Shown here: one piece after another, positions 8,001 to 11,000 of the stretch
Layout of the letters: every line of letters starts with the position of its first letter
How positions within the stretch are numbered: position 1 is the stretch's first letter
Program-made: the position numbers
Virus record (IMG/VR): IMGVR_UViG_2681813161_000008
Strand: one strand, 5' to 3'
DNA length: 26,548 nucleotides
Source: a virus
Lineage: Duplodnaviria; Heunggongvirae; Uroviricota; Caudoviricetes

Positions 8001-11000
8001 ACTCTTTAGAGTAACGTTGGTTTTTTCTGCTCATTATTAGCTCCTTCTGATGCCATTCTATTTCAGGAAGGAGTGTCCGTTAAACTCAGGCTACCTCATA
8101 GCCGAGGCCACCAAAGCCCGGAGGTGGTGAAATAAAACCGGGCACAACACGAAGGCGCATTTCCGGTATTCATAAAGAGTCGGTCTTGTCTGTGAAATTT
8201 AAATGGTGGGAGTGCGCTTCCGGTTGTAAATAACGACATTGCTGTGTGAAGTACCAGTTGGCGGCATCGGTTTAATTGCTGGCTGATGTCCGCCCTTTTT
8301 AAAGTGAATTTTGTGATGCGGTGAATGCGGCTAAGCGCACGCGGCACAGTTAAAAGTCATGTTAGTCCTTATTGGTTTGGGTGGGAAAGCCGACTGTAAT
8401 TGTTAACTGGTTAACGTCACCTGGAGGCACTAGGCACCGCATCACAAAATTCACTTCGGTGATGAAAGGAAAGAGAAAATGTTGAATGTAGCTATTGAAA
8501 ACCAGAACGGGTGGAATTATAGTGCACCTGCACCTCATAAAACGGGTGCCGGGATTAGCACCCCGAAAGTTACTCGAGCGCATAACCGCGCTGAAGCGGT
8601 TTTTTTATGCGTAATGCACAGCCACATTCAAATTATGGTGAGGCGTGCGGGGCAGCCGCAAGGCTGGCCGGGTTCTCGAGTGACCGGTAGTGCTAACCCT
8701 GTGCGTCTCACCACCCATGAGATTAGCACCTCTGCTGGTGAGTTAATTAACTTATCACTTGAGGATGTCATTATGGCTACTACCCTTTCTCACCCTGACG
8801 TAACCATCGAAAATGGTCGCGCCGTCACTACTTCTATTTCGATTGCTGAGTTTTTTGGCAAGCAGCATCACCATGTTGTTCAAAAAATAGAATCCTTCGA
8901 ATGTTCTGAACTATTTTTAACCAGCAACTTTTCGCGGGTTAAATTCGAACACCGCGGCAATTCTTATAACGCCTACCAAATCACCAAAAACGGCTTCGTT
9001 TTCCTGGTGATGGGCTTCACGGGCAAAAAAGCCGCCACATTCAAGGAAGCCTACATTGCTGAGTTCGACCGCATGGAGGCCGAACTGCGCCAGAATAACA
9101 CCCCACCTGCTGACAAGATGATTCCGGGTGATGGTCGCACTCTGGTTGTTCACTTCGACAAATTCGGCAATGTCGAATTCACCGAAACCGTTCCTGATGG
9201 CGCACTGGTCTGTACCCTGGAGACTTTCCGGTTTTATCTGGAAAAACAGGGCTGGACTCTTGTAAACCGGGGCGCAATTAAAAACATGACCGTAGAGCAG
9301 TTGCTTTCCTTAAAATAAAAATGGAGCTATGGATATGAACCCCATGCTTGATTATTGTTTTACACCTGCCCTCAGGCTGAGGTAGCCTGAGTTTAACGGA
9401 CACTCCTTCCTGAAATAGAATGGCATCAGAAGGAGCTAATAATGAGCAGAAAAAACCAACGTTACTCTAAAGAGTTCAAAGCCGAAGCTGTCAGAACGGT
9501 TCTTGAAAATCAACTTTCGATCAGTGAAGGCGCTTCCCGATTATCCCTTCCTGAAGGCACTTTAGGACAATGGGTTACCGCCGCCAGAAAAGGGCTCGGT
9601 ACTCCTGGTTCCCGCACGGTGGCTGAACTGGAATCTGAAATTCTGCAACTGCGTAAGGCGTTAAATGAAGCTCGCCTTGAGCGAGATATATTAAAAAAAG
9701 CAACAGCGTATTTTGCACAGGAGTCGCTGAAAAATACGCGTTAATCGAACAATGGCGACAACAATTTCCCATTGAAGCGATGTGTCAGGTATTTGGTGTA
9801 TCCAGGAGCGGTTATTACAACTGGGTACAGCATGAACCCTCAGACAGAAAACAAAGTGATGAGCGGCTAAAACTGGAGATTAAGGTGGCACATATCCGCA
9901 CTCGCGAAACATATGGAACCCGGCGGCTCCAGACGGAGCTGGCAGAGAATGGCATCATCGTTGGTCGTGACCGACTGGCACGTCTTCGTAAGGAGCTAAG
10001 GCTACGCTGTAAGCAGAAACGCAAGTTCAGAGCGACTACGAACCCGAACCACAATCTGAACCGCCCCGGGTTTCCTGGAGAGTGTTTTATCTGTGAACTC
10101 AGGCTGCCAGATCATCGTTTCCGATGGAAGCATAATAAGCTTTTTCTGCTTCTGCCGGAGGGATGTGGCCCAGCCTTTCCAGCAATCGTCGATTATTATA
10201 CCAGTCCACCCACGTGAGTGTGGCCAGTTCCACTTCTGCACGGTTTTTCCAGCTCTTACGGTGTATTACCTCCGCTTTGTAAAGACCATTGATGCTCTCC
10301 GCCATCGCGTTGTCATACGAGTCGCCTGTACTTCCTGTTGATGCCAGTAATCCGGCTTCCTTAAGCCGCTGTGTGTAGGCCAGCGATACATACTGAGAAC
10401 CTTTATCACTGTGATGGACCGTGCCGGACGGTCGACGGGCCCATAACGCCTGCTCCAGAGCATCCAGCACGAATGTCGTTTCCATGGACGATGAGACCCG
10501 CCACCCCACGATGTATCCGGCAAACACATCAATAATGAACGCCACATAGACGAAGCCCTGCCATGTGCTGACGTAAGTAAAATCAGCCACCCACAGCTGG
10601 TCAGGTCGTTCTGCCACGAACTGACGGTTTACGCGGTCGCCTGCGGCAACGGCTTTCCGGCTGATGGTCGTACGGACCTTTTTACCCCGGAGAACACCGG
10701 CAAGTCCCATAACCGCCATGAGACGTGCCACAGTGCATCTGGCCACTCTGATACCTTCCCGTAACAACTGACGCCAGACTTTACGCACACCGTATACCTG
10801 ATGATTCCCATCGTATACGCGCAGTATCTCTTTCTTCAGCCAGTCATCGCGCTGCGCACGGGCACTGCGTTTATCAGGATGATGTCGCTGTTGCTGACAG
10901 TGGTAATACGTTGACGGGGCAATATGTAGTTCACTGCATACCGGTCCGACCCCGTACAGCTTACGCAGCTTATCCAGCAGTGGCATCACTTTTTCCAGAG

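Follow-up and report, generated by a model that had tools for sequence, protein, structure and literature searches.

The mechanism of the isrK-orf45-anrP switch of Gifsy-1 has been shown experimentally: the short IsrK RNA activates the long transcript in trans, and synthesis of the antirepressor depends on translation of orf45, in which the nucleotide sequence is conserved and the amino-acid sequence is not (PMC4825925). The same source reports an orf45-anrP fusion of 287 amino acids in Shigella dysenteriae and pairing of the P4 CI RNA with seqA and seqC (PMC4825925). Two other prophage small RNAs (sRNAs), STnc100 and PasD, were published downstream of stx2 and near Q, respectively, and are treated as related prophage sRNAs; PasD is abundant and depends on Hfq, and among the chimera partners bound by CsrA PasD2 ranks first in abundance. 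A further system with which we compare our locus is the c4 RNA of the P1 and P7 immI region (RF01695, clan CL00128), for which the details of c4 and icd-ant are reportedly those of Citron & Schuster in 1990 and Biere et al. in 1992. The locus analysed here lies in a stretch of 26,548 nucleotides from a virus of the Caudoviricetes (IMG/VR record IMGVR_UViG_2681813161_000008), the whole of which we call the window. At positions 8302-8772 an exact 22-bp inverted repeat, an internal palindrome and a terminator precede a Rha-family gene, and an earlier note on this DNA had proposed that they might together form a c4/IsrK-type riboregulator or, alternatively, an operator or invertase site.

We found that the region most probably contains two independent RNA modules, a putative STnc100/PasD-like element at 8302-8456 and a predicted C4/IsrK-type switch at 8495-8772. 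The riboregulator anticipated by the earlier note is thus present before rha, but the inverted repeat and its palindrome are not part of it, because they lie upstream of its promoter, belong to a different homology block (shared with Rac, to 8456) and take an STnc100/PasD-type fold. The parts of the repeat element are as follows.

8302-8323, plus strand: 5′ strand of the closing helix P1, the left arm of the repeat (AAGTGAATTTTGTGATGCGGTG), an exact 22-mer that extends the helix
8324-8326, plus strand: AAU junction
8327-8342, plus strand: hairpin P2 (GCGGCUAAGCGCACGC), with A8339 bulged
8347-8353, plus strand: 5′ strand of the pseudoknot, CAGUUAA, forming 7 pairs with 8403-8409
8392-8418, plus strand: hairpin P5, GACUGUAA (8392-8399) with UUAACGUC (8411-8418), 6 of 8 pairs formed in this copy
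8403-8409, plus strand: 3′ strand of the pseudoknot, UUAACUG, inside the P5 loop
8420-8434, plus strand: hairpin P6, CCUGG-AGGCA-CUAGG, with loop AGGCA
8435-8456, plus strand: 3′ strand of P1, the right arm of the repeat (CACCGCATCACAAAATTCACTT), where the homology shared with Rac stops

A repeat search recovered the two arms as the earlier note had given them, 22 nt long, 100% complementary and 111 nt apart, and an exact inverted repeat of this length within ~1 kb is far beyond chance. The plus-strand RNA of 8296-8462 folds at -60.8 kcal/mol (z = -4.5), a value that none of 200 shuffles equalled; the minus strand of the repeat region folds well too, and the strand was therefore settled by comparison with relatives. 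The palindrome noted previously is present, gttaactggttaac at 8402-8415 consisting of two GTTAAC hexamers around TG and being palindromic at 12 of 14 positions, but in the fold it is one strand of the pseudoknot followed by the 3′ strand of P5. Hairpin P6 matches the STnc100 consensus CCGGG-AGGCA-CCCGG with a U:A to G:C swap, and its G:U pair is standard on the plus strand only. The Rfam STnc100 model (RF02076) matched the repeat below threshold (30.7 bits against a gathering score of 47, E = 1.4e-4, model positions 21-154), and the Rfam search of 7900-9000 at E <= 10 returned nothing beyond C4, isrK, STnc100, DicF and c4-a1b1.

The evidence that carries the assignment comes from relatives. 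Searching viral contigs with the 3′ motif CACCNGGAGGCACNNGGCACC yielded more than 120 loci, and a scan of genomes found many Enterobacterales, with a few likely chance matches elsewhere. The common architecture consists of P1, the AAU junction, P2 with one bulge, a short linker, a variable hairpin, GCG, P5, and P6 with its AGGCA loop, which abuts the 3′ strand of P1; the linker 3-5 nt past P2 pairs with the P5 loop to form the pseudoknot, at an offset that is constant across the family. Since P5 and the pseudoknot were not in register in a MAFFT alignment, the nested helices were aligned under the guidance of a covariance model and the pseudoknot was assessed by a permutation test. A custom covariance model built from 28 diverse copies and spanning both of the subfamilies described below scored the dicF-dicB spacer of E. 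coli K-12 at 82.2 bits, its sieB-kilR spacer at 71.7 bits and the window at 78.7 bits, the last value not being independent as the window belongs to the seed. Among 102 distinct sequences, 93% of cells were paired as modelled, compared with 41-46% when the partners were slid, and compensatory changes on both sides were present in 17 of 25 pairs, values that none of 500 shuffles reached. These changes affect all seven modelled pairs of P5 and the inner 8 bp of P1, the part of that helix included in the model; in P2, 99% of cells were paired, and RNAalifold recorded CG/GC swaps in three of its five pairs. The full P1 of 21-22 bp is kept with a different sequence, through compensatory changes, in Lelliottia, Scandinavium and Pseudescherichia. 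For the pseudoknot, the mean complementary run was 6.74 nt, against 5.03 ± 0.12 when loops were swapped among sequences, and more than 35 distinct duplex sequences occur across the family. G:U cells outnumbered A:C cells (164 versus 42, in an alignment that had been fitted to the plus-strand model), which favours an RNA read from the plus strand. On this comparative evidence we regard the predicted fold, strand, family and positions of the repeat element as established: 8302-8456 is best described as a copy of a conserved pseudoknotted RNA of ~135 nt, of the STnc100/PasD superfamily, in which P1 has been lengthened to ~22 bp.

The window and STnc100/PasD share the P1-AAU-P2 ... P5-P6 layout and the strings GGUGAAU, GCG and CACC-CNGG-AGGCA-CCNG-GCACC, both occur in prophages of Enterobacterales, and the one custom model finds both. 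Canonical copies reach 57-159 bits with the Rfam STnc100 model, start 7-10 nt past a promoter, are followed by a strong terminator ~30 nt after P1 and stand upstream of holin or nanS-p esterase genes. The subfamily to which the window belongs differs in a P2 of the GCGGC...GCGC type, in a P1 of 21-22 bp compared with 6-10 bp in most other copies, and in having no linker plus terminator; there is no terminator after the element in contigs L022 and L012, and the next one in the window (8584) belongs to the IsrK-like RNA. Its members directly abut a Shine-Dalgarno (SD) sequence and start codon, those of dicB in Qin, of kilR in Rac or of other small open reading frames (ORFs). In E. coli K-12 the element fills the dicF-dicB and sieB-kilR spacers, where it is unannotated. 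The Qin and Rac copies of K-12 and the copy in contig L006 have no gathering-level match to Rfam STnc100. The window element likewise falls short of the gathering score and of the format of an sRNA with a terminator, but shares the core fold, and is a divergent variant. Its place in an early-left operon of the kind that carries dicB or kilR also sets it apart from STnc100 copies, which follow Q or stx and precede an esterase or holin gene. In every locus whose neighbours were checked the element had the orientation of the downstream gene and stood in a fixed operon position, either after Q and before a holin gene or after DicF and before dicB or kilR. The pseudoknot is absent from the structure line of Rfam STnc100; pseudoknot, DicF and dicB are not mentioned in the one STnc100/PasD paper searched, and no description of the link to the K-12 dicF-dicB and sieB-kilR spacers was found in the literature examined.

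Several arrangements of these units were seen in other contigs. One contig holds four STnc100-type units in tandem from Q to the lysis genes, and a fifth immediately precedes its holin gene. Arrays of 3-5 units from Q to the holin or lysis genes occur in L080 (4349-5513 and 8357-8555), L014 (2265-3380), L025 (342-1038) and L038; in L080 an isrI-like RNA lies between the units, and L100 has two units spaced by ~267 nt, each with its own terminator. In L006 an STnc100-like element (8037-8166) is fused directly upstream of a DicF-like RNA and terminator in the following ~60 nt, as it also is in L004, L017, L019 and L037; in phages of this type the DicF-like part takes the place of the linker plus terminator of an STnc100-type sRNA.

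The second module, immediately before rha, comprises the following features.

8495-8523, plus strand: sigma-70-type promoter, TTGAAA at 8495 and TATAGT at 8518 separated by 17 nt, 10 of 12 consensus positions
8530-8606, plus strand: IsrK-like RNA, Rfam isrK (RF01394) 68.5 bits against a gathering score of 50
8555-8561, plus strand: decoy site b1, UUAGCAC, in the IsrK-like RNA
8569-8578, plus strand: decoy site a1, GUUACUCGAG, in the IsrK-like RNA
8584-8606, plus strand: intrinsic terminator of the IsrK-like RNA, a hairpin (8584-8601) and T-run
8631-8718, plus strand: C4-type antisense RNA, Rfam C4 (RF01695) 78.6 bits against a gathering score of 45, full length over model positions 1-87
8672-8683, plus strand: C4 loop a′, GUUCUCGAGUGA
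8690-8696, plus strand: C4 segment b′, GUGCUAA
8723-8729, plus strand: target b2, UUAGCAC, in the rha leader, 7 contiguous pairs with b′
8755-8766, plus strand: target a2, UCACUUGAGGAU, 12 contiguous pairs with a′, covering the SD sequence GAGGA at 8761-8765
8773-9318, plus strand: Rha-family antirepressor-type gene, ATG at 8773 behind the GAGGA at 8761-8765

On these features a C4/IsrK-type riboregulator of the antirepressor gene is predicted with confidence. Covariance-model matches and complementarity to the rha leader, whose joint absence the earlier note had taken as the sign that it was wrong, were both found: the isrK and C4 scores exceed their gathering thresholds, and the C4 a′ loop pairs with the SD region over 12 contiguous positions in a manner that covaries in related loci. 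The rha start with its SD sequence and the rho-independent terminator were also where the note had placed them. It had, however, expected an antisense RNA ending at that terminator, which instead ends the IsrK-like RNA, C4 lying downstream of it; the Rfam c4-a1b1 model was sub-threshold (23.8 versus 46.7 bits). The promoter lies ~7 nt ahead of isrK model position 1. We compared the window with ten further versions of the module from fetched loci (11 variants in all, 71-100% identity) and found the ATTGA and TAnAnT blocks of the promoter in every one. Sites a1 and b1 are duplicates of a2 and b2, and across the variants all four change along with the C4 loops, the b sites and their loops forming the combinations UUAGCAC/GUGCUAA, GUGGAAA/UUUCCAC, UUGCUAC/GUAGCAA and UUGGCGU/ACGCCAA. 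When loops and targets were crossed, cognate combinations had 18-20 paired positions (15 in L078) and non-cognate ones mostly 7-16, the cognate partner being nearly always the best; the a and b specificities reassort among the variants. We therefore grade the predicted pairing of C4 with its targets, with its covariation, as established. A minus-strand stretch of contig L079 (~9600-11285) carries three tandem isrK-C4-(rha-like) modules, each with different a and b specificities.

The switch is a member of known families, and each of their features that could be examined was found. As in P1 and P7, two loops pair with downstream sites, one of them over the ribosome site, duplicate sites lie upstream in the same transcript, and loops and targets vary together; the window differs in that the controlled gene is of the Rha family and not P1 Ant, there is no icd, the module stands in a lambdoid early-left operon, and the leader with a1 and b1 ends at its own terminator, as IsrK does. 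With Gifsy-1 it shares a promoter of its own, a terminator, an AUG just past the terminator, and a leader ORF over a C4-like RNA (STnc1160 in Gifsy-1) followed by the antirepressor, and in both the leader is conserved in nucleotides and not in amino acids. Unlike the Gifsy-1 arrangement, the window leader is fused in frame to rha, with no AUGA overlap, its frame is also open upstream through IsrK, and no antQ-type downstream target was identified in the window. P4 has an isrK-like RNA (60.8 bits) followed by C4 (74.9 bits), the same order as the window, and likewise an ORF over the RNA that is matched by Phage_ASH; P4 differs in that regulation leads to premature termination of its replication operon and that the antirepressor encoded downstream is not Rha but epsilon (PF25738).

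By analogy with P1, P4 and Gifsy-1, the promoter at 8495-8523 would drive an IsrK-like RNA with the decoys a1 and b1, whose terminator would be leaky, so that some transcripts would run on through C4 into the rha message. C4, processed from this longer transcript, as c4 of P1 is by RNase P, would pair through a′ and b′ with a2 and b2, and pairing at a2 would occlude the rha SD sequence and keep the antirepressor off; the IsrK-type RNA, with the same sites, would compete for C4 and turn rha on. Translation of the leader frame from the AUG at 8635 may couple to that of rha.

The DNA appears to be what is left of a lambdoid prophage of the Rac/Qin kind, and the two modules probably meet at a mosaic junction in its early-left operon (pL, dicBF-type). 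The neighbouring features are listed here, the insertion sequences being named by recognition of their transposases.

6585-6791: DUF1391 (ydfA/ydaF-type) gene, left of the first IS600
6879-8098: IS600 copy 1 (presumed), ending ~8098, left of the region
8245-8295, plus strand: DicF-like hairpin and terminator in the position of Qin dicF, Rfam DicF 28.6 bits against a gathering score of 48 (sub-threshold)
~9442-10217: IS600 copy 2 (presumed), inverted relative to copy 1 and apparently truncated by the IS629-like element
10099-11312: IS629-like element (presumed), with its frameshift site, an Rfam ALIL pseudoknot match at 10915-11031 (116 bits)

The placement in an early-left operon rests on gene order. 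A near-identical locus in E. coli FDAARGOS_944, without the IS600 interruption, has the order helix-turn-helix repressor, DUF1391, a gene fragment, the matching region, Rha, YdaE and RecE, and in Qin-like loci the order is ydfA-ydfB-ydfC, a DicF-like RNA, the matching region, Rha and dicB. Synteny with the dicBF locus of Qin itself is identical (DUF1391 gene, DicF or DicF-like terminator, element, next gene), except that the DicF-like RNA of the window has diverged (28.6 versus 48 bits) and has another 5′ part, unlike that of K-12 DicF. The DicF-like stretch aligns with the DicF position of Qin-like loci and contains a terminator-like site (8263-8290) and T-run directly upstream of the inverted repeat. 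A predicted long stem at ~8150-8226 precedes it and contains GTGCGCTTCCGGTTGT, which is also found in the K-12 ydfC-dicF spacer, where it would correspond to the start of the 190-nt DicF species as computed from the published length; Rac of K-12 has a similar unannotated DicF-like hairpin ahead of its copy of the element.

Megablast divided the region into two homology blocks. The first, 8100-8456, has counterparts in the sieB-kilR spacer of Rac and in E. coli genomes by the thousand, its Rac-type matches ending at query positions 354-357 (window 8453-8456), the end of the right arm; the second, 8531-8800, matches Stx2a phages, with homology beginning at 8531. A query containing the repeat block matched 4678 of 5426 complete E. 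coli genomes, at a median of 2 and a maximum of 10 places per genome. In the window and its relatives the isrK-C4-rha cassette appears to have recombined in directly after the repeat element, between it and the usual next gene. The element is itself a recombinant: the 5′ strand of P5 is of the Rac type (GACUGUAA) and the 3′ strand of the Qin type (UUAACGUC), which accounts for the two mismatches of P5 in the window, as the hairpin pairs perfectly in both Rac (UUGCAGUC) and Qin (GGCGUUAA/UUAACGUC). The same chimera is present in FDAARGOS_944.

The earlier note had called the region non-coding, a description that calls for one qualification: the rha frame is open across the whole IsrK/C4 region. 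The minus-strand ORFs that it mentioned (8096-8347 and 8362-8583) do exist and overlie the plus-strand RNA elements. The rha product matches Pfam Phage_pRha (89.7 bits) and NCBIfam TIGR02681 (83.6 bits); PGAP-style calls start at ATG 8479 and give 279 amino acids, and the identical locus of FDAARGOS_944 is annotated as a Rha family protein. An ‘Ash’ domain has been reported on Rha proteins of Stx phages, and 8479-8772 could accordingly be read not as regulatory RNA but as the coding sequence of an N-terminal Ash domain in a 279-amino-acid Ash-Rha fusion. Translated, 8479-8772 matches Pfam Phage_ASH (PF10554) with 57.9 bits, above the cutoff of 26 (57.9-61.1 bits in all), the RefSeq annotation uses the long form, and several variants have ATG codons with SD-like sequences ~105 codons upstream. 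In 10 of the 11 variants the open rha frame extends 88-107 codons upstream, with 0 stops (1 in L127) compared with summed counts of 19-37 per other frame in each half of the region; the AUG at 8635, an orf45-like start within the 5′ end of C4, is kept in frame with rha in all 11, and no stop follows it in the 10 scored. We nevertheless consider this coding reading distinctly unlikely. Substitutions in the leader show no periodicity by codon position (1004/1084/1095), unlike those at the start of rha proper (368/246/463), and its variable positions are exactly the antisense loops and targets, which covary as RNA. Transcripts from the promoter at 8495-8523 begin downstream of ATG 8479, NCBIfam has no model for the 8479-8772 stretch, and Phage_ASH also matches the obsolete ‘cI’ ORF of P4 that overlies the CI/C4 RNA (L129, 8168-8584), the P4 antirepressor being epsilon. 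In Gifsy-1 the equivalent orf45 has to be translated while its amino-acid sequence is not conserved (PMC4825925). Most likely, then, selection for passage of ribosomes or for coupling keeps the frame free of stops, and no folded domain is encoded, although a genuine long isoform may exist; what has been called Ash in the Rha proteins of Stx phages probably represents, for the most part, IsrK and C4 RNA genes read as protein.

Turning to the repeat, the suggestion that it forms, with the spacer and the terminator, a single small antisense RNA controlling rha has in its favour that the repeat folds strongly, lies upstream of rha and is followed by the terminator at 8584-8606. We judge it very unlikely, since the riboregulator maps elsewhere, with isrK at 8530-8606, C4 at 8631-8718 and the promoter at 8495-8523, all downstream of the repeat; moreover thousands of E. 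coli genomes carry the repeat block with no rha or C4 beside it, for example before kilR or dicB, and Stx2a phages and P4 have C4 modules but not the repeat. No complementarity between the element and the rha leader was noticed, with no dedicated test made. Even less credible is a site acting at the DNA level, whether the operator or invertase site of the earlier note, another recombinase site or the termini of a miniature mobile element. A perfect inverted repeat with several places per genome and a mosaic breakpoint at its right end would suit such a site, but compensatory and G:U changes preserve the helices both within the repeat and beyond it and the pseudoknot covaries, which indicates that selection acts on RNA; in addition the arms range from 6 to 22 bp depending on context, the orientation follows that of the downstream gene wherever neighbours were checked, and the operon positions are fixed.

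What the element does is a matter on which our proposals are tentative. With low confidence, we suggest that it may serve as an intra-operon, cis-acting leader or processing module of a polycistronic early transcript, in which the 22-bp helix would insulate the fold and might be a substrate of RNase III that separates the DicF-like RNA from the downstream message. A stronger form of this idea, which we hold possible though short of probable, makes the helix primarily an RNase III site: cleavage would trim the DicF-like precursor, free the core and create a new 5′ end that sets the stability or translation of the dicB, kilR or rha-cassette message. In its favour, only intra-operon copies maintain, through compensatory changes, a helix as long as 21-22 bp (about two turns), promoter-proximal ones having 6-10 bp, but a long helix could simply insulate folding in a long transcript. 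The published RNase III site in Qin lies ~137 nt upstream of DicF, outside the P1 helix, for which reason the repeat was also rejected as the known site of DicF maturation. Two papers that map RNase III cleavage do not mention the spacer in their main texts (PMC6212723 and PMC5371410; cleavage tables not searched), and nothing on the dicF-dicB or sieB-kilR spacers was found in the literature on RNase III targets and on kilR, which is reached by read-through when NusG is repressed. Alternatively, the element could be the 5′ domain of a transcript of its own that starts at a promoter overlapping the DicF-like terminator, an STnc100/PasD-like, Hfq/CsrA-associated sRNA or leader acting in trans. 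Canonical members do begin just past a promoter and end at a terminator, PasD and PasD2 have the Hfq and CsrA associations described above, and weak promoter-like sites lie ahead of the element both here (TTGCTG-18 nt-TAAAGT) and in Qin (GTGACT-16 nt-TAAAGT), each recognised by eye. This we find unlikely: an SD sequence and ORF take the place of the terminator in the window subfamily, a start at the weak promoter, which is under the scan threshold, would drop about half of the conserved left arm, and Ragunathan et al. report no promoter within the dicBF operon. Somewhat more plausible, if speculative, is that the core common to STnc100, PasD and the dicB leader forms a discrete functional RNA domain with a pseudoknot, either catalytic or able to bind a protein or ligand, which temperate phages of Enterobacterales would use in two formats. 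In one it would make up the 5′ domain of late-leader sRNAs, of which 4-5 may stand in an array from Q to the holin gene; in the other it would be a leader module with a long stem, placed immediately ahead of toxic early genes such as dicB, kilR and their relatives.

Several points weigh against our interpretation of the locus as a whole. The function proposed for the repeat element is drawn from helix length and position only. IS600 (end ~8098) lies between the region and the pL promoter, and the element may be an untranscribed silent relic here, cut off from pL, the sole exception being the weak promoter-like site over the DicF-like terminator (8 of 12 consensus positions). With Rfam STnc100 the window copy does not reach the gathering score, its score with the custom model is that of a seed member, and as a Rac (5′) and Qin (3′) chimera it has two broken pairs in P5. 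For the switch, C4 processing and terminator read-through are carried over from P1, P4 and Gifsy-1.

Other identities were considered and set aside. An antiterminator like put of HK022, a two-stem RNA of ~70 nt that acts in cis on long operons, was entertained because many copies of the element are promoter-proximal; the motifs of the family are absent from the pL/pR region of HK022, the covariance model had no match in HK022 24000-32000, and family members precede terminators that we judge to be working because they yield sRNAs. The likeness is therefore one of position only, both being structured phage RNAs in promoter-proximal or intra-operon places. The IpeX/DLP12 late region of K-12 gave no covariance-model match and was rejected as a family member. 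A tRNA or tmRNA mimic was dismissed as ARAGORN found only four tRNAs, at 2780-3090 on the minus strand (Gly-TCC, Thr-TGT, Arg-TCT and Met-CAT). Mimicry of a CRISPR repeat by P2 and a count of CsrA GGA sites were looked at by eye and dropped as unsupported.

The C4/IsrK part of this locus is ordinary and confirms existing models, to which it adds a natural set of co-varying specificities for Rha-type antirepressors. The repeat element reaches further, in that two unannotated spacers of E. coli K-12, dicF-dicB and sieB-kilR, contain a conserved pseudoknotted RNA related to Hfq- and CsrA-associated prophage sRNAs, and these K-12 copies offer a tractable handle on the family and on expression of the toxic genes dicB and kilR. 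If the core is indeed a single RNA domain in two formats, it would, in E. coli K-12 itself, govern how cell-division inhibitors are processed or expressed.

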